From the IMG/VR virus record IMGVR_UViG_3300046333_000090: a stretch of DNA of 64,000 nucleotides; one strand, 5' to 3'. Shown here one piece after another: positions 3,533 to 26,652 of the stretch (positions are counted from its first letter, which is position 1; each line of letters begins with the position of its first letter). A model generated the notes under the pieces. The model was not told the DNA's origin and did no database searches. It saw only the letters and a list, made by a program, of their open reading frames with translations. The stretch is from a virus. The position numbers and the translations under genes are program-made.

Positions 3533-3664
3533 TTTATTAAATTTAATAATCACTTTCTAACTTGTATGGGGAGTGATTATTAATATGTGCTGAGAGTGCC
3601 CCAAAATGCTCTATAACGCACGGAATTCATAAATATGATTACTAGTATATAATCATAATAAACT
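3533..3664 (+). repeat. dispersed intergenic cassette (palindrome, hairpin, core, late-promoter-like CATAAATA)
   Basis: ATTAAATTTAAT, an AATCACT..AGTGATT hairpin, then GCTGAGAGTGCCCCAAAATGCTCTATAACGCACG..ATAAATATGATTACTAGTA. Confidence 0.8.
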
Positions 3665-17904: not shown

Positions 17905-18432
17905 TTGTGTTATAATGATGTTGTAATTAATATCACTAGTAGATTTGATATAAGGACAAATGGGCAAAATGTAAAAATCTATGAACTAGTATATGGAGAA
18001 AAGACTAATCAAAACTATGTACTCAATCATTTAGATGACAATCCTAATAATAATAAGCTATGTAATCTAGAATTAGTCACTAATTGGTTCAACTCATCAA
18101 TACAGAAGAAGTCATCTGGACTAGATATTGGTATAAACTATAATCGTGATAATCGTGTTGGCAGTTATCAAACAAAAATTGCTATGCCAAGAGTAAATGG
18201 TAAGAGAATAACTTTTGGTTCACAATCTATTGATTATCTACAAAACTTACATTTCCAATTTGGAGTAAAGTCAGGATTAGTGTCTTCTGAACGATACTTA
18301 CAAGAAGTACCTAATTGGTTGCCAGATCTAACTATCCAATTCAAACCAGAACATCAGATCAAACTAGAACTACTAATTGAAGCACACATAGAGAATCAAC
18401 TTACTTGGGATAAGCCGATTAGGTTGGCATAA
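17905..18432 (+). CDS. HNH endonuclease family copy (5'-shortened; true start uncertain)
   Basis: NHLDDNPNNNKLCNLELVT; the C-terminus is closely similar to 49354-50049 (LQNLHFQFGVKSGLVS...LTWDKPI). Confidence 0.75.
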   Translation: MCYNDVVINITSRFDIRTNGQNVKIYELVYGEKTNQNYVLNHLDDNPNNNKLCNLELVTNWFNSSIQKKSSGLDIGINYNRDNRVGSYQTKIAMPRVNGKRITFGSQSIDYLQNLHFQFGVKSGLVSSERYLQEVPNWLPDLTIQFKPEHQIKLELLIEAHIENQLTWDKPIRLA

Positions 18433-18481
18433 TCTCACTAAGTCTGTTATAATAAAAAGGAACAAAGCATTACGACACAAA

Positions 18482-18850
18482 ATGAAATCGTTAGATCCAA
18501 TTTTCAGCTTTTCCGATCATCCGTCATTAAAAGGCGACCCACGCAGCACGTTATATTGTTGCCCTGATAGAAATAACCATATTAAATTCTACTATGCCAA
18601 CTATGAAGAATTAGTAGAAATCGGATTGAGTAGTTTAGCTTATTGTAACATGGGCGAACCGTATCGAGTACTAGCCAGACTATATTTTATTAAATTTAAT
18701 AATTGTCACAAAGAAACTATTAATATCTCAATGGAAGATGCAGTACGACTATACAAATATTTGCAAAAAATTAATATGATGGTATTAGTATCTAAAGATT
18801 TATTAACTGACAACACTTTTAAAAAATATTTAGAAGTATACGAAGATTAA
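18482..18850 (+). CDS. hypothetical protein
   Basis: Clean ORF with an upstream TGTTATAAT and AAAGGA. Confidence 0.6.
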   Translation: MKSLDPIFSFSDHPSLKGDPRSTLYCCPDRNNHIKFYYANYEELVEIGLSSLAYCNMGEPYRVLARLYFIKFNNCHKETINISMEDAVRLYKYLQKINMMVLVSKDLLTDNTFKKYLEVYED

Positions 18851-18954
18851 TTTTTAATTAAATACTTTATATTATTAAGATGATTCACTTTGATTATACA
18901 ATCATCAGAAGACTAAATTTTTGATTAAATATTAACCCACAACAGTAAAAAATA

Positions 18955-21900
18955 ATGCAAGTATTTAAAAGAGATGGCAGCATAGAACCATTAGATCTAG
19001 AAAAGATTCATACAATGGTATTTCGTGCATGTGAAGGGGTTGACGATGTGTCCCCTTCATTAGTAGTAATGAATAGTAAAATTCAATTAACAGATGGGAT
19101 TGCTACAGAATATATTCAAAATCTATTAGTGACATCTGCTAATAATTTAATTACTATCGAAGAACCAAACTATCAGTACGTGGCAGCACGACTACTACTA
19201 TTTGGACTATATAAATCTTTATATCCACAGTGGAAAACATTTGGGTTAGTACATATATATCACCATATCACTAGATTCAAAAACAAGTATGATTCTATCT
19301 TATTTGACAGTTACTCTAAAGAAGATTGGGACGTACTAAATGAAGCAATTGACCATAGTAAAGATTATAAATTTACATATGCGTCGTTACAACAATTAAT
19401 TGATAAGTATCTAATTCAAGACAGATCTACTGGATTTGTATATGAGATTCCGCAGTATGCGTATATGCTGATTGCCGCCACAGTATTTCATGATTATCCA
19501 GTAGAAACTAGATTAGCTACGGTTATAGATTACTACCATGCAATCTCCGATCATGAAATTAATCTCCCTACGCCTATTATGAGTGGCGTGAGAACTAAAC
19601 AACGCAATTTTTCTAGCTGTTTTCCTGCTGGACAATTAGTGCATACAAGTACTGGATTAAAGCCAATTGAAACTATTTCCGTTGGAAATATGGTGTTGAC
19701 TCATGCTGGAAGAATGATGTCAGTATTAGCTACGAATGCTAAATATTTTGAACAAAAATATGTAGCTATTGATACTTATTCTACTTTGAATGATCAATTT
19801 GTTTCAACTGATGATCATTTAATATTTGCGGCTAAGGATGTCGGATGTATTCGTGGTTCTGAACATCGTTCTTGTATATGCAGTCAGGGTATTTATAAAT
19901 ATTGTGAGAAATATCCCAGACAATATTCTGAAGATTGTATTAATTTATACAAAAATGATTTATTTGAACCAAAATGGACACCAGCAAAAGAATTAGATGA
20001 TAATTATTGGGTACATGTGGCATACAATAAATCTGTAGTAAATACTGAGTATTTAATTATATCAGATATAATTGATATTGGTAGTCGATACGATATCAAT
20101 GAAGAAGGATTGATACATTACAAAAGTTATAGATCTGATATATGGTATGTACCTAATAAAATTTATTTGAATGAAGAGTTATTCAGATTAATTGGGTATT
20201 ATTTGGCGGAAGGACATGCTACTGATGGTGGCAGTATGGGATTTACCTTCGGCAACAAAGATAAATATATTATTGATGATTGTGTAAATATTATTCAAAA
20301 CGTATTTGGGTATACAGTAATTCCCTCTAATAATCCTTACGACAATAGTACTAAAGTTAGTATATGCTCTAAAATTATTACTAACTTGTTTATCCGGCTG
20401 TGTAGCAATAAATTTGATAAAAAGTTTATTTGTTATGAATTAATGAATGCTTCTATAGAATTACAAAAGCAATTACTGATTGGAGTAATTCGGGGAGATG
20501 GTTGTGCGTATTCGCAGGGATTGCAGGTAGGGTTGTCTAATAAACAACTAATTTATCAATTATTTGATATATCTTTGCGATTAAAATTGTCACCAACTAT
20601 AAATGTGCAAAAATATAATGATGGTATACGCCAAGACGTGTATACTATATATTTTCCTAGAAGTGCAAATTATGATTTTATTATGGAAGTTGGTAAAGAT
20701 GTACATAAAGTAAATTATACTAGTAAAACATACGCTTATGGGATATGGAAAGATGACAATTATTTTACTAAAATAAAAAGCGTTAAAATTATTAATAGTA
20801 TTGACGATAATATAGTGTATGATTTACAAATTGCTGGAGATGAAAGTTTTGTAGTTTCTGGATTATCTGTACACAATTGCGCTTTACTTGATTGTGACGA
20901 TTCTACTTTATCTATATCTGCTAATAATCAAGCTACCGCTATGCTCACTGCCGCATCTAGTGGTATTGGTTTAAATGTGGGACGAATGAGGTCTATTGGT
21001 AGTAGTATCAGAAATGGTACAGTTATTCATCCTGGTATCGTCCCATTTTTGAAAATCTTTGAATCGACAGGTAAGGCATTTAGTCAGGCGGCGAGAGGTG
21101 GAAAACTAACCTGCTATTACCATATTTTCGGATACGAGATCGAAACAGTCATTCAACTCAAGAACAATCGTGCAAATGAAGTATCTTCGGTGAAGCATCT
21201 TGATTACTGTATTTGTATTTCAGAATTGTTTTATAAGAGATTTATAAATAACCAAAATATCACACTATTCTGTAATAGTGATACACCAGGATTGTATGAT
21301 GCTTTTGGCACCCCAGCATTTGATAAATTATATGAATATTACGAGAAAAAGGATGGGGTGAGAAAGAAAGTTGTATCTATGCAAAAACTGTTTGTAGATC
21401 TAATGGAACAACGATCTGAAACGGCGCGGATTTACATAATGAATGTCGATCATGCTAATACACATTCTCCGTACTTAGACGGAGTATATATGAGCAACTT
21501 GTGTGTTGCCCCAGAAACATTATTACTCACCAATAAAGGATATTTGCCAATTGGTACGCTAGAAGATCAATCAGTAACGATATGGAATGGATGGGAGTGG
21601 TCTGATACGGTAGTAAGAAAAACTGGAATTGATCAGAAACTAATCAATATTAAATTCCAAGATGATAAAGGTAATATTCATAACATAGAATGTACAGAAT
21701 ATCATAAGTTTTTTATACAATCCCGTAATGATGTAATTGAAGTTCGTGCAAACGATTTGATTGTTGGGCAATATATTCAGAATTGGAATCCTCCAGAATT
21801 TCTAATTGATTCTGATATAACTTTACATCAATATCATAGAGATTGGTGGGTATATAGCACACATAATATCGAAAGATTATCTGATACTTATTGTCTTACC

Positions 21901-22095
21901 GAACCAAAAAGAAATAGAATGGTAATAAATGGGATTCTCTCTGGGCAATGTGTCGAAATCATCCAGCCAAGTCACCCAATATCCGATATCAATGATACTG
22001 GAATTCACGAACATACTGTAGCAGTTAAGAATAATAAATTAGACGAATTTATTAAGCTATCTCAAGACAATGAGTTTCTTGAATTTCCTATCTAA
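18955..22095 (+). CDS. nrdA: class Ia ribonucleotide reductase alpha, fragment a (ATP cone to NLCxE), with two inteins
   Basis: ATP cone VFKRDG; LPTPIMSG.R; FSS|C; SNL|CVE. Confidence 0.93.
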   Translation: MQVFKRDGSIEPLDLEKIHTMVFRACEGVDDVSPSLVVMNSKIQLTDGIATEYIQNLLVTSANNLITIEEPNYQYVAARLLLFGLYKSLYPQWKTFGLVHIYHHITRFKNKYDSILFDSYSKEDWDVLNEAIDHSKDYKFTYASLQQLIDKYLIQDRSTGFVYEIPQYAYMLIAATVFHDYPVETRLATVIDYYHAISDHEINLPTPIMSGVRTKQRNFSSCFPAGQLVHTSTGLKPIETISVGNMVLTHAGRMMSVLATNAKYFEQKYVAIDTYSTLNDQFVSTDDHLIFAAKDVGCIRGSEHRSCICSQGIYKYCEKYPRQYSEDCINLYKNDLFEPKWTPAKELDDNYWVHVAYNKSVVNTEYLIISDIIDIGSRYDINEEGLIHYKSYRSDIWYVPNKIYLNEELFRLIGYYLAEGHATDGGSMGFTFGNKDKYIIDDCVNIIQNVFGYTVIPSNNPYDNSTKVSICSKIITNLFIRLCSNKFDKKFICYELMNASIELQKQLLIGVIRGDGCAYSQGLQVGLSNKQLIYQLFDISLRLKLSPTINVQKYNDGIRQDVYTIYFPRSANYDFIMEVGKDVHKVNYTSKTYAYGIWKDDNYFTKIKSVKIINSIDDNIVYDLQIAGDESFVVSGLSVHNCALLDCDDSTLSISANNQATAMLTAASSGIGLNVGRMRSIGSSIRNGTVIHPGIVPFLKIFESTGKAFSQAARGGKLTCYYHIFGYEIETVIQLKNNRANEVSSVKHLDYCICISELFYKRFINNQNITLFCNSDTPGLYDAFGTPAFDKLYEYYEKKDGVRKKVVSMQKLFVDLMEQRSETARIYIMNVDHANTHSPYLDGVYMSNLCVAPETLLLTNKGYLPIGTLEDQSVTIWNGWEWSDTVVRKTGIDQKLINIKFQDDKGNIHNIECTEYHKFFIQSRNDVIEVRANDLIVGQYIQNWNPPEFLIDSDITLHQYHRDWWVYSTHNIERLSDTYCLTEPKRNRMVINGILSGQCVEIIQPSHPISDINDTGIHEHTVAVKNNKLDEFIKLSQDNEFLEFPI
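19618..20877 (+). mobile_element. intein 1 in NrdA (420 aa, LAGLIDADG homing endonuclease)
   Basis: CFPAGQ...TDDH...LIGYYLAEG...LIGVIRGDG...VYDLQI...VHN|C. Confidence 0.92.
21502..21948 (+). mobile_element. mini-intein 2 in NrdA (149 aa, C-terminal Gln)
   Basis: CVAPETLLLT...CTEYHKF...TYCLTEP...LSGQ|C. Confidence 0.9.
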
Positions 22096-22156
22096 TATCC
22101 TCTCAGACCCCTCTAGGATGCCCTACAACGTACGATAATTAAAAATATGACTACTG
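22096..22156 (+). repeat. cassette core at the nrdA split
   Basis: CTCTCAGACCCCTCTAGGATGCCCTACAACGTACGA..AAATATGACTACT; its ATG is the start of fragment b. Confidence 0.75.
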
Positions 22157-23118
22157 ACATCTTCCGCATAGCAACAGACCGCCAATTCGATCCTAATACC
22201 GAAACATTAGTAGATGATGTAAAGATAATTGACAGACTGCCACCAGGCATCACATCTTGTGTATTAGGCGCAATCAGTTGGGATAAGTTATCTGACAACA
22301 TGTCAGATAACTTTATCAAAATGAAACGATGGTGTGATTTAGAGATCAGATCATTAAATCAGATCATCGACATACAGGAATACAATATCCCTAGTACAGA
22401 GATAGCCACTAAATCCGCAAGATATTTGGGGGTAGGGATTAATGGTTATGCAACATTTGCTGCACGATTAGGTTTATCATATAATCATAAAGAATTGTGG
22501 CAAATCACTCACGATCTTGCAGAAATGCAGATGTTTTGTCTATTATCTGCATCTAATAACTTAGCCAAAGAAGTAGGTGAATGTAAATGGTTTTATAAAA
22601 CTAAATATTCACAAGGAATTCTACCTATCGATCACTACAGGAAAAGTGTAGATGATGTAGTTCCTAATAATCTTAATATGGATTGGGAAGGGTTGAGAGA
22701 ATCAATTTTGATGAATGGACTCAGAAACAGTGCATTTTCTGCGGTGATGCCTGTACAATCATCTTCTGTAATTAGTAACAGTACTAATGGAATCGAACTA
22801 CCTCGCGCACCATTACAAATCATAAAGTCAAAGAATCGATTAATTCGACAAATAGTAAAAGATTTTAAAAAATTAGAAGATAATTATGAGTATTGTTGGG
22901 AAAAAAGTACAAATACAGGATATATCAATATTTGTGCCGTAATTCAAAAATTCTTCGACCAATCTATCTCAGCCAACTTGTATTACGATCCTAAATGGTT
23001 TTCAGACCAAACTATACCAATGGGTACGATGATTGGTGATGTCTTATATGCGTACAAGATGGGATTAAAAACATTGTATTATGCTAATTCAAATGACGGT
23101 CGAGATGATTATGAATAA
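22147..23118 (+). CDS. nrdA: ribonucleotide reductase alpha, fragment b
   Basis: SCVLGAI (C462 equivalent), RYLGVG, GLRNS, STNGIE, DQSISAN and GLKTLYY; there is no terminal CxxC. Confidence 0.92.
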   Translation: MTTDIFRIATDRQFDPNTETLVDDVKIIDRLPPGITSCVLGAISWDKLSDNMSDNFIKMKRWCDLEIRSLNQIIDIQEYNIPSTEIATKSARYLGVGINGYATFAARLGLSYNHKELWQITHDLAEMQMFCLLSASNNLAKEVGECKWFYKTKYSQGILPIDHYRKSVDDVVPNNLNMDWEGLRESILMNGLRNSAFSAVMPVQSSSVISNSTNGIELPRAPLQIIKSKNRLIRQIVKDFKKLEDNYEYCWEKSTNTGYINICAVIQKFFDQSISANLYYDPKWFSDQTIPMGTMIGDVLYAYKMGLKTLYYANSNDGRDDYE

Positions 23119-23181
23119 TCCAGTTAAATGTGTTAAAATAGATAAATAATTAATTACCCACCAATATATAAATCAAGAACC

Positions 23182-23355
23182 ATGCCAGAACAACATCCAG
23201 AATTGCTAACCGAAATATTGCCATCACACCCATTACCAATTCCTCAGCCAGAATTGCTGACAGAAGTACTGTCCACTTCTCCACATAAACGTAAGTATTG
23301 CACACCAATGATCATTAATGATGACACAGAAAGTTGCGAAAGTTGTAACGTTTAA
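23182..23355 (+). CDS. 57-aa ORF carrying the NrdA C-terminal redox Cys pair (fragment c)
   Basis: MPEQHPELLTEILPSHPLPIPQPELLTEVLSTSPHKRKYCTPMIINDDTESCESCNV; same frame as nrdA, with its own TGTGTTAAAAT motif upstream. Confidence 0.72.
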   Translation: MPEQHPELLTEILPSHPLPIPQPELLTEVLSTSPHKRKYCTPMIINDDTESCESCNV

Positions 23356-23435
23356 AAGGTATTAGGTAATATAAATCCCACTAAATCCCACTAAATTTAG
23401 TGGGATTTATTAAAATTATTAAATTTAATAATAAC

Positions 23436-25499
23436 ATGTCAGTAATAAATTTAGACAACTCAATCGACTTCACGAAGCAAACTCAATTTTTCGATCAACA
23501 ATTAAATTTACAACGATACGATAAGTATAGATATCCTCTGTTACATCAACTATACAAGACTCAAAAATCATACTTTTGGAGTCCGACGGAGATAACATTA
23601 CAGAAAGACAAAATAGACTATTCAAACTTGACCGAACAAGAAAAATTTATTTACACATCCAATTTAAAATATCAAATTTTGTTAGATAGTGTGCAATCTA
23701 GAAGTACATTGTTAGCATTTTTGCCATTTGTATCTCTACCAGAATTAGAAAAAAATATAATTATTTGGGGATTTTTTGAGACTATTCATTCGGAATCATA
23801 TACTCATATCATTGAGAATGTATATAATAAGCCATCTGAAATTTTTGATAATATTCTGAATATTCCAGAAATAGTAGAGCGAACCAAACAAGTCACTAAA
23901 TATTATGATGAGTTTATTGATTTTTCTAGTAGTTGGAATACCTCTAGTATAAAGACATTATTAGTAGACGGTAATGTTACCGCTAATCAAACATTATTAG
24001 AATTAAAACGTTCATTATATCTAGCTATAGTGAATGTGAATATCTTAGAAGGTATTAGATTTTATACATCATTCGCTTGCTCATTTGCCTTTGCAGAAAA
24101 TGCTAAAATGATTGGTTCTTCTGATATTATTAGTTTAATTGCCAGAGACGAAGCATGTTATACCACTGGACATGAAGCTTTGACGGATACTGGATGGAAA
24201 CTAATTGAAGATATTACAAAAGAAGATAAAGTGGCACAATACACCAACAATAATGCAGTAGAATTTGTTCACCCCACTGCTATTATTAATAAACAATATA
24301 TTGGTGATGTATATCAATTTATAGACGATTCCGGCAGAATTGAACAAATTGTTACTGCCGATCATCGAATGGTGTGGCGTGAGTTATTTACAGGCAGAAT
24401 GAAAGAATCGGTAGCAGCTACCACTAATTTTACATCAAGTAAGGCAATTGTGGTTAGTGGTATAGTTTTAGCAGGAGCAGTAGAATTAAGTCCTATAGAA
24501 ATTTTAAATATATACACTGAATATTGTGGTACTGTTTTAGAAGTATTAGAACATAAATTAAAGGTGGAGTTTAATGTAAAAAATGAGACTAATTGGAGTA
24601 AATTGGGTAGATCTTTAGTTGCATTAGGAATTAGTTACGATTACTATATTACATATAAAACTGGAGTATATACCATAACTTGCGAGATACCAACAGCTTC
24701 TTTACAAAAATATTTTAGTTGGGTGAATATCCAGGGTAAGTCTACATTATGGGCACAAAATTTAATAAATTTATGTAGGGCGTTGAATGGTAACAAATCT
24801 TGTATGTCTTCCGTTCCTGGTAAGTTTAAATTTACTATCAATCATACTAAGAGTTTGAAAAAGTTACAACAAGTGTTTGCTATTAGTAATTGGAAAATAT
24901 ATCATACTCACCCGTCAAAAAAATATGTTGGGTATAATATTAACGTATTGACTACTAGAAATTCTCATATTACTTCAAAAACAGAGAAGGTTAAACAAAA
25001 TTATAGTGGCAAGGTTTATTGTTTATCTGTTCCTTCTGGTGCATTTTTTGTTAGATATAATGAAAAGGTTTCAGTTGGGGGCAATTGTCATACTCGACTT
25101 ACTGAAACTATTATTAAGAATTGGCAAGCTGGTGAGGATAAAGATATTCTTAATATTATTAAAGAAGAAGAACAATTGGTATATACTATGTTTGATCTAG
25201 CAGTAGCGGCGGAAATAGAGTGGGCAGAATATCTTTTCAAAAATGGTAGTATATTGGGGTTGAATGTAGAACTATTATCACAATATATTAAATTTGTGGC
25301 GAATCGTAGACTTAAAGCGATCAATATGAAGCCACTGTATGACGATGTTTCTGTCAAGAATCCTTTGCCCTGGATCGATAATTATCTGAAGTCTTCTAAT
25401 ATAAGTGTCGCGCCACAAGAAACGGAGGTCTTATCATACCAAATTGGTAATATTGACAAAAATATAAGTGAAGGGCAATTCAGTAATTTTGAATTGTAA
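23436..25499 (+). CDS. nrdB: ribonucleotide reductase beta subunit with intein
   Basis: FWSPTE, LDSVQ, ETIHSESY, LEGIRFY, RDEA|CH and VAPQETE. Confidence 0.95.
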   Translation: MSVINLDNSIDFTKQTQFFDQQLNLQRYDKYRYPLLHQLYKTQKSYFWSPTEITLQKDKIDYSNLTEQEKFIYTSNLKYQILLDSVQSRSTLLAFLPFVSLPELEKNIIIWGFFETIHSESYTHIIENVYNKPSEIFDNILNIPEIVERTKQVTKYYDEFIDFSSSWNTSSIKTLLVDGNVTANQTLLELKRSLYLAIVNVNILEGIRFYTSFACSFAFAENAKMIGSSDIISLIARDEACYTTGHEALTDTGWKLIEDITKEDKVAQYTNNNAVEFVHPTAIINKQYIGDVYQFIDDSGRIEQIVTADHRMVWRELFTGRMKESVAATTNFTSSKAIVVSGIVLAGAVELSPIEILNIYTEYCGTVLEVLEHKLKVEFNVKNETNWSKLGRSLVALGISYDYYITYKTGVYTITCEIPTASLQKYFSWVNIQGKSTLWAQNLINLCRALNGNKSCMSSVPGKFKFTINHTKSLKKLQQVFAISNWKIYHTHPSKKYVGYNINVLTTRNSHITSKTEKVKQNYSGKVYCLSVPSGAFFVRYNEKVSVGGNCHTRLTETIIKNWQAGEDKDILNIIKEEEQLVYTMFDLAVAAEIEWAEYLFKNGSILGLNVELLSQYIKFVANRRLKAINMKPLYDDVSVKNPLPWIDNYLKSSNISVAPQETEVLSYQIGNIDKNISEGQFSNFEL
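24156..25085 (+). mobile_element. intein in the NrdB iron-binding DExxH motif (310 aa)
   Basis: CYTTGHEALT...VTADHRM...VYCLSVPSG...GGN|C. Confidence 0.9.
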
Positions 25500-25552
25500 T
25501 TATTGTTCATAAATCACTATAGAAAAGAGCAATTATGGAGTTGCTCTGATTA

Positions 25553-25630
25553 ACATGCTCTGAGAGGGGTGTAGAATGCTGTGTAACGCACAGAAATTAT
25601 AAATAAGATTATTATTATCAAAATATAAAA
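25553..25630 (+). repeat. dispersed cassette core with TATAAATA
   Basis: GCTCTGAGAGGGGTGTAGAATGCTGTGTAACGCACAGAAATTATAAATAAG. Confidence 0.8.
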
Positions 25631-26092
25631 ATGATCAAAGAATTGATGAAGATCAAAGATCTAACAGAATTTGAATGCGATTGTGAAGGGGTTAGAGACA
25701 AACTATTCAATACTCCAGAATTATTGACAATAACAGAACTGATTTATTTTTTGAGGATGTCTAATAATTTAGATTACTGGATCACTGGTACTCATTATGC
25801 AGTGATGAAATTAGTATCTTTATTAAGAATGCTCGAACCAGTTTATGGGGTATATAAGGAACAAGATAAAGAAAAAAATAGAATTATCACTAGTATTTGT
25901 TTAAATTTTATTAGCAGCGAGAAGGGGTCATTACAGTATGCTGCATTGGATTTGGTAGAGGCTGGGATTTGTGCGGAGTATCAACCAATCGTTGATTTAT
26001 TCCCCGTTATTGAGAAAATAATTATTGGTGACAGACATACCTCCAAATATGTATTATCTCATTTAAAATTAATTAAGGATTCGCATATATGA
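25631..26092 (+). CDS. hypothetical protein
   Basis: ORF directly behind the cassette. Confidence 0.6.
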   Translation: MIKELMKIKDLTEFECDCEGVRDKLFNTPELLTITELIYFLRMSNNLDYWITGTHYAVMKLVSLLRMLEPVYGVYKEQDKEKNRIITSICLNFISSEKGSLQYAALDLVEAGICAEYQPIVDLFPVIEKIIIGDRHTSKYVLSHLKLIKDSHI

Positions 26093-26652
26093 GAGAATTA
26101 GTAGAATCAGTTAAAGTATTTTATCTACTAACAGAAAGTGGAGATAGACCACCATCCAGTGAGATAGAACACGACGAAAAGAATAAACATTTGAAAACAA
26201 AATTAACAAAATACGCATATTCATCTAAGTATAACCACCCAAATCATTTTTCTCCAGATTATTCAGGGACATTTCATGGTGTATCTTGGAATACAGATCA
26301 TGACACTGAAAAAATGGATAAAAACCAAAAAATAGGAATTGTACAAGATGCCATACACTTACAAAAACATTTTGTAAAAAATGTAGCAAAACCTGGCGAT
26401 GTGCTACGAAGTATACCAGATGAAGATGATGATGGCGAAGGTGGTAATAAACGCGGAAAACTATATCAAAAAGTTGGTTTTGGTAAATTAGGAAATAGAA
26501 CTTCTCAGTATGGAATAATTAAACAACATCCTCATGACCACGATGACGAAACTAAACGAGGACAACATTATCTACATCCGTTAGAACACGAAGAAATAGA
26601 ATTGTCTCGAAAAAAATATTACGAAGAACGTGCAAAAAATGGCACCAAATGA
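26089..26652 (+). CDS. hypothetical protein, GNAT-like C-terminal motif
   Basis: NKRGKLYQKVGF motif; N-terminus MRELVES. Confidence 0.55.
   Translation: MRELVESVKVFYLLTESGDRPPSSEIEHDEKNKHLKTKLTKYAYSSKYNHPNHFSPDYSGTFHGVSWNTDHDTEKMDKNQKIGIVQDAIHLQKHFVKNVAKPGDVLRSIPDEDDDGEGGNKRGKLYQKVGFGKLGNRTSQYGIIKQHPHDHDDETKRGQHYLHPLEHEEIELSRKKYYEERAKNGTK

Follow-up and report, generated by a model that had tools for sequence, protein, structure and literature searches.

A T4-like phage with a ribonucleotide reductase large subunit encoded by three genes, one of them a candidate detached redox tail

Class I ribonucleotide reductases (RNRs) re-reduce their active-site disulfide through a disordered C-terminal tail with two cysteines, which receives its electrons from thioredoxin or glutaredoxin (PMC9669993, PMC5704485). 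The locus described here raises the question of what does this work when the catalytic polypeptides end without a cysteine pair. It lies in a 64,000-nucleotide (nt) stretch of viral DNA (IMG/VR record IMGVR_UViG_3300046333_000090; "the window" is this whole stretch), and the source phage is an uncultured T4-like myovirus with a GC content of ~32%. The gene order gp61 primase, nrdA, nrdB is the same as in cyanophage P-SSM2, and the NrdA proteins of the closest deposited phages are only ~49% identical. The large (alpha) RNR subunit of the window is encoded by three separate genes, nrdA-a, nrdA-b and a small open reading frame (ORF) that we call c. It is rather probable, in our judgment, that this alpha subunit is made from three separately translated products, that c supplies the tail function in trans, and that c arose beside a fused tail.

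Three genes for one large subunit

The products of nrdA-a and nrdA-b (a and b below) together contain the domains of a class Ia NrdA (ATP-cone, all-alpha N domain and ten-stranded barrel, by Pfam) and its catalytic residues (C225, N437, C439, E441, C462 and Y730/Y731, by alignment to P-SSM2 NrdA). Pfam matched ATP-cone, Ribonuc_red_lgN and model positions 2-213 of Ribonuc_red_lgC on a, and model positions 224-522 of Ribonuc_red_lgC on b. The alignment placed the equivalents of C225, N437, C439 and E441 on a. An earlier note, made from the letters of this stretch, had assigned the C462 equivalent and the tyrosine pair to b, and both are there (C38 in ...ITSCVLGAISW, and ...KTLYYANSND). The note had also put the stop of a about 45 codons after the NL/CVE junction; the C-extein (amino acids (aa) 999-1046) extends 48 codons beyond it. 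As noted before, b ends with ...DGRDDYE and does not have the terminal cysteine pair that class Ia enzymes carry on the alpha polypeptide.

All three ORFs of the window are in frame 1, and the a/b gap of ~50 nt is similar to the coding gap of T4 gene 60 (10.1101/2022.08.31.505936). Both points would suit the explanation that a, b and c are one polypeptide, either broken by assembly errors or restored by read-through, recoding, an intron or translational bypassing. We find this explanation hardly credible. There are six stops of two kinds in the gaps (TAA and TAG between a and b, and four TAA between b and c). The suspicion that they are assembly errors did not hold, as three independent JGI assemblies (L090-L092) agreed with the window at 100% identity in stretches of 2.4-3.2 kb that cover both breaks. 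An E-value scan of positions 18000-26500 with Rfam found no intron and no other RNA family. In related loci (L numbers below), the spacing also varies: a and b are only 1 nt apart in L004, an endonuclease gene separates them in L087, and b and c do not share a frame in L004 or in L086. Since the pieces are in differing frames in L004 and L086, read-through is excluded. Moreover, every one of the three pieces begins with a conserved ATG of its own. The three-piece alpha subunit claimed in the earlier note is borne out, with separate pieces and a layout that is conserved in relatives.

ORF c and the loss of the fused tail

The features of c that had been pointed out before are all present, namely the promoter-like TGTGTTAAAAT that precedes it, the ...DDTESCESCNV end, with the CxxC at 23335-23346 and two residues from the C-terminus, and a duplicated LLTE(I/V) motif (ELLTEIL, aa 7-13, 23200-23220; ELLTEVL, aa 24-30, 23251-23271). 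The protein is proline-rich and also has a KRKY patch and an acidic stretch. A Pfam search with c gave no match at E <= 0.01, the thioredoxin fold included. A conserved c ORF was found in relatives at a fixed position. Nine distinct proteins of 49-64 aa make up the family. Each of them has LLTE(I/V) once or twice, KRxY, a hydrophobic-acidic stretch and a CxxC that is followed by exactly two residues. All 13 loci of the clade with downstream sequence have a c-like ORF between nrdA(-b) and nrdB, and none of ~80 cyanophage-like loci has one after nrdA. The background set for these comparisons was composed of NrdAs from a metagenome scan, mostly cyanophage-like and at most 50% identical. The b orthologues of L086, L003 and L004 (93, 90 and 74% identity) are of the same length, have the same truncated end and are each followed by a c ORF, and an identical c protein occurs on 17 contigs from at least seven samples. 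A profile search with c among 1.84 billion representatives recovered standalone proteins of 49-64 aa only and detected no fused form. In one locus (P0131), a DUF8296 ORF immediately precedes c. A tblastn search of c against 50,697 phage records gave chance-level matches only, and an ESM Atlas look-up with c gave no usable match. With b, a pattern scan of viral contigs gave no match, and an alignment-based scan recovered the L004 contig only.

Some properties of c might be expected of a decaying leftover: it is short, proline-rich and of low complexity, it belongs to no Pfam family, and the RNR genes around it carry a heavy load of inteins and endonucleases. According to this explanation, c would be a displaced gene end or a spurious ORF, and the RNR would be crippled, limited to a single turnover or dependent on small-molecule thiols. 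We consider this very improbable. The nine diverged members keep the frame, start codon, motifs and CxxCxx end. Their pairwise ratios of nonsynonymous to synonymous substitution rates (dN/dS) are 0.05-0.42, with dS saturated, and the frame stays open, so c is under purifying selection. Moreover, a and b are under strong purifying selection (dN/dS 0.06-0.14), and the true fused-tail relic in the b/c spacer (see below) has decayed, unlike c.

The loss of the fused tail coincides with the presence of c. Among 94 related NrdA 3' ends, 86 end with CxxCxx, while the eight tailless ends are all in the clade of the window and each is followed by c. In every c and in all 86 fused tails, the CxxC stands after an acidic stretch and is followed by exactly two residues. 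A motif L[LI]x[DEQN][LIVM] is found 5-9 residues before the CxxC in 42 of 67 distinct fused tails (1.65 expected from shuffles), and the LLTE(I/V) of c falls into this motif class too, occurring in duplicate and at a greater distance from the CxxC. These shared features suggest that c and the fused tail are of common descent. The repeats of c were also considered as mimics of the NrdB tail (QETEVLSY), and this idea was dropped because the resemblance covers 4-5 residues and did not co-vary across loci.

The remains of the fused tail can still be recognized. The b/c spacer of L003 is 67 nt long, compared with 66 nt of tail-coding sequence in L087, and it still reads as a frameshifted relic (...NK.C..C..stop), terminated by the same TAG in front of the ATAAATA box. 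The spacer of the window is probably a shorter remnant of the former fused-tail coding region. A tree of b favoured a history in which the fused tail was lost twice independently, in L004 and in the window group, both of which bear c. Four sister lineages (L087, L093, L094/L095 and L096) have a short fused CxxC tail on b or NrdA, plus c. Since the fused tail and c occur together there, c is more than a piece cut off from b. These sister phages preserve an intermediate state, and the most economical history is that c arose beside a tailed NrdA, that the two were redundant, and that the fused tail then decayed. In L096, an extra ORF of 77 aa (2051-2284) is situated between the tailed nrdA-b and c.

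Promoter-like sequences stand before c (Table 1). The ATAAATA box of the window is 33 nt before the start of c, and in seven loci an invariant box precedes c by ~30 nt. ATAAATA boxes occur throughout the window (e.g., at 3629, 10393, 16443, 23142, 25599, 47876, 50093, 57373 and 59461). Eighteen of 61 boxes are 15-45 nt upstream of a same-strand ORF of at least 80 aa, where 1.6% of positions would be expected by chance (~18-fold enrichment), consistent with a T4-type late promoter core that is used throughout the phage. The extended -10-like sequence is also over-represented (15 matches, 5.7 expected). A scan for sigma-70 and terminator consensus sequences did not discriminate in DNA so rich in AT. 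As c has promoter-like signals of its own, the supply of the tail could be regulated apart from the enzyme. A hairpin is found at the position matching that of the window in L003 (z -4.3) and in L004 (z -6.6, with a different sequence and a U run after it). Because this hairpin or terminator comes after c and not before it, c belongs to the nrdA unit.

Table 1. Coordinates of the RNR genes of the window and of the elements within and between them.
Feature	Position	Strand	Description	Basis
nrdA-a	18955..22095	+	1046 aa; ATP-cone, all-alpha N domain, first barrel half, two inteins	ORF list, Pfam, P-SSM2 NrdA alignment
Intein 1	19618..20877	+	420 aa (a aa 222-641), CFPAG...SVHN	Pfam Hint_2, Intein_splicing, LAGLIDADG_3
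Intein 2	21502..21948	+	149-aa mini-intein (a aa 850-998), CVAPETLL...ILSGQ	
NrdA-a C-terminal extension	22003..22092	+	~30 aa without counterpart in unsplit NrdA; kept in relatives	Alignment
a/b gap	22093..22146	+	One copy of a ~60-nt repeated cassette, core CTAGGATGCCC at 22113-22123, running into the ATG ACT ACT start of b	
nrdA-b	22147..23118	+	323 aa; second barrel half	ORF list, Pfam, orthologues
b/c spacer	23119..23181	+	Four in-frame TAA; extended -10-like TGTGTTAAAAT at 23129-23139; late-promoter-like ATAAATA box at 23142-23148	
ORF c	23182..23355	+	57-aa mini-protein	ORF list, orthologues, dN/dS, profile search
Hairpin	23365..23420	+	Stable, directly after c and before nrdB	Fold z-score -4.2
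nrdB	23436..25499	+	Beta subunit	Pfam Ribonuc_red_sm in two stretches

Detached tail or another function

The only terminal cysteine pair in the window lineage is on c, and we therefore propose that c docks on a/b as a detached tail. The two inteins would splice out of NrdA-a, and NrdA-a and NrdA-b would assemble non-covalently as in Aeromonas phage Aeh1, aided by the extension tails at the break. NrdA-b has lost its flexible tail with the cysteine pair, and the product of c would replace it in trans. The acidic CxxCxx end of c might be reduced by thioredoxin or glutaredoxin, and reduced c would then reduce the disulfide between the C225 and C462 equivalents, which would form across a and b in each turnover. 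c might be held on the enzyme by the KRxY patch and by LLTE(I/V), whether single or duplicated. In evolutionary terms, c would have arisen as an additional tail-like gene beside the fused tail, which became dispensable and decayed in the lineage of the window. The earlier note had put forward a tripartite alpha subunit with a trans-acting arm. The tripartite layout, its conservation and the tail hallmarks of c stood, but c as a simply cut-off end of b did not, given the fused tails that coexist with c in four lineages.

Several points weigh against the detached tail. We infer the expression of c, its binding to a/b and the shuttling of electrons. As the fused tail and c occur together in four lineages, the original role of c need not be the replacement of a tail. 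In a profile hidden Markov model of c, real fused tails scored no better than shuffled ones with the last six residues fixed, and thus the homology of c and the tails rests on short motifs. Most c members have a third cysteine (CxxCxC), which the fused tails do not have. The tail was lost in one or two events, and a single loss was not rejected (p-AU 0.095), so the complementary pattern carries little statistical weight. A motif scan of the 64-kb window for a thioredoxin- or glutaredoxin-like CxxC protein saw none. Apart from these points, when the N-extein and C-extein of a and the b of L004 were co-folded with the c of L004 as partner (alignments given), the score was 0.15 and the mark 0.32, with the partner's own fold uncertain; this result counts neither for nor against the detached tail.

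Some of the same observations would be explained if c were an RNR-associated CxxC mini-protein with another job, and the tailless a/b were reduced by another route. Such a protein might be a regulator or competitor at the docking site of the tail or the beta tail, a diffusing mini-redox carrier that serves several enzymes, or a metal-binding helper in the assembly of the NrdB cofactor. YfaE and NrdI are positional analogues for the last of these. The coexistence of c with intact fused tails in L087, L093, L094 and L096 and the third cysteine at the end of most members would suit another job. So would the position of c directly upstream of nrdB and its late-promoter-like box, which is unlike typical early RNR genes. 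Nevertheless, we consider another job unlikely. The geometry of the CxxC end and the LLxE(L/I/V) motif class are common to c and the fused tails, the loss of the fused tail is confined to lineages with c, and the hairpin or terminator after c puts it in the nrdA unit. For a metal helper, the ligands would not suffice, as a monomer has just one invariant CxxC with which to bind a cluster.

We see about an even chance that c is no longer a tethered arm. It would then be a free-standing, dockable and exchangeable electron carrier that cycles between a cellular reductant and the active site that a and b form together. How the C-terminal cysteine tail of class I RNRs gains access to the active site, and how it alternates with the tail of the beta subunit, are poorly understood. 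If the proposal is true, a separate 57-aa tail could be titrated, mutated, labelled and trapped apart from the enzyme. The LLxE(L/I/V) motif, which is kept in many phage NrdA tails, is a candidate docking element. Relatives with fused and free tails would form a series in which to follow how gene fission can evolve through redundancy and then loss. Finally, the paradigm of Aeh1 would be extended from two pieces to three (five segments when the inteins are counted), which shows the extent to which mobile elements can fragment an essential enzyme that is still maintained.

Mobile elements, neighbouring genes and known systems

Both inteins of NrdA-a are inserted before catalytic cysteines. The +1 Cys of intein 1, which has a LAGLIDADG-like domain, is the C225 equivalent (SSC/CALLD), and neither L004 nor L087 has this intein in its homologue of a. 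The +1 Cys of intein 2 is the C439 equivalent (SNL-CVE), and its last residue is Gln, not Asn. The intein at the C439 site ends with ..SGQ/C in the window and in L096, while its L004 homologue has the canonical Asn (...LAGN/C) and L087 has no intein. The C439-site intein of L096 (36-959) also houses a LAGLIDADG domain.

The nrdB product is ~300 aa longer than NrdB of P-SSM2. It is likely that nrdB holds an intein, from about ...RDEA/CYTTGH to ...VGGN/CHT, and nrdB is similarly long in L003, L004 and L093. When C-termini were compared, the tail of NrdB (...APQETEVLSYQIG...FSNFEL) was intact. A free-standing HNH_3 endonuclease ORF (17905-18432) is located between the gp61 primase gene and an ORFan upstream of nrdA, and L004 has HNH_3 genes in comparable places that flank the RNR genes on both sides.

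The extensions at the a/b break, the ~30-aa tail of a and the ~34-aa head of b (22147-22248), are conserved in L004 and L087. In L094 both are joined as a single continuous loop insertion of ~70 aa. The window has no homing endonuclease gene of the mobE type in the break, and the gap is just 51 nt. In L087, a relative with 71% identity, a NUMOD3 homing endonuclease gene (1857-2702) is exactly between nrdA-a and nrdA-b. An endonuclease of this kind is the likely cause of the a/b split and has since been lost from the window.

The ~60-nt cassette in the gap (TAATAT...CTAGRATGCCCTACAACG...AAATATGACTACTG) is intergenic and repeated. Its core has 10 matches in the window (0.94 expected), with one copy at 22093-22156 and others near 959, 33236, 34959, 36996, 49246, 52606, 61585, 63617 and 63690. 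In the window, L003 and L086, a copy occupies the a/b gap and gives b its ATG ACT ACT start; L004 has none. Further copies are before tiny ORFs that begin with MTT, and the cassette could be a mobile regulatory or translation-initiation element. NrdA of L094 (3-3295) is unsplit at the a/b loop and is broken upstream instead, after ...RGG/C, where Hint-like halves flank a non-coding stretch (PT-HINT match) in a manner that resembles the "fractured gene" of a split intein. NrdA-b-type fragments with a similar head (..QLFEIV.. before the C462 equivalent) were seen in P0037, P0010, P0026 and the Proteus phage records H28 and H29. As such fragments occur in unrelated phage groups, Proteus phages included and all with fused tails, splits of this nrdA loop seem to be widespread.

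A class Ia RNR split into NrdA-a and NrdA-b was reportedly described for Aeh1 by Friedrich and colleagues in 2007. According to Crona and colleagues (2011), the Aeh1 split leaves Cys-431 on NrdA-a and Cys-31 on NrdA-b, and the enzyme needs the extension tails at its break in order to be active (PMC3045599). A preprint reports MobE insertions inside nrdA, again with conserved extensions, for several further myoviruses (10.1101/2022.08.31.505936). The comparison drawn in the earlier note holds well here. In both phages the break falls in the loop that runs from the C439 equivalent to the C462 equivalent, and it gives two independently translated genes. The active-site cysteines are shared out over two polypeptides (a aa 999 and b C38 in the window), non-RNR C-terminal and N-terminal extensions flank the break, and there is a link to a homing endonuclease, here through L087. 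In contrast to Aeh1, the gap of the window holds a repeat cassette and no endonuclease, and a has two inteins in addition. Moreover, NrdA-b of Aeh1 is by description a complete C-terminal part, whereas b of the window is tailless and the cysteine pair is on a third gene.

Compared with a fused tail of the P-SSM2 type, c has the same acidic stretch, CxxC plus two residues and upstream LLxE(L/I/V)-type motif, and like the fused tail it closes the nrdA unit, with nrdB coming next. It differs in that it is separately translated, with a start and promoter-like boxes of its own. Its motif is duplicated and ~25 residues from the CxxC instead of 5-9. Further differences are the basic KRxY patch and, often, a third cysteine. 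Small redoxins (thioredoxin, glutaredoxin, NrdH and T4 NrdC) are also small CxxC proteins that are encoded with RNR genes and are expected to pass reducing equivalents. With 57 aa, however, c is too short for the thioredoxin fold of thioredoxin, glutaredoxin and NrdH, and its CxxC is at the C-terminal extreme and not at the start of helix 1.

Another arrangement with a separate redox module is the split class II RNR NrdJa/NrdJb, for example of Pseudomonas aeruginosa, in which the redox cysteine module is on a separate gene and NrdJb is a folded Cys-rich domain of 150-220 aa, zinc-finger or IscU-like (PMC5704485, PMC9669993). Like NrdJb, which is implicated in terminal reduction, c is a Cys-bearing candidate module for this task on its own gene, adjoining the catalytic gene in all 13 loci of the clade. 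It differs from NrdJb in the class of the enzyme and in being a proline-rich protein of 49-64 aa with a single invariant CxxC at the very end. Similarity between the sequences of NrdJb and c was neither reported nor seen. The earlier note knew of no precedent for a tripartite alpha subunit with a trans-acting tail. The two-piece class Ia split of Aeh1 (PMC3045599) and the class II module (PMC5704485, PMC9669993) are partial precedents, and class II NrdJb is the only one known for a genetically separate redox module of an RNR.

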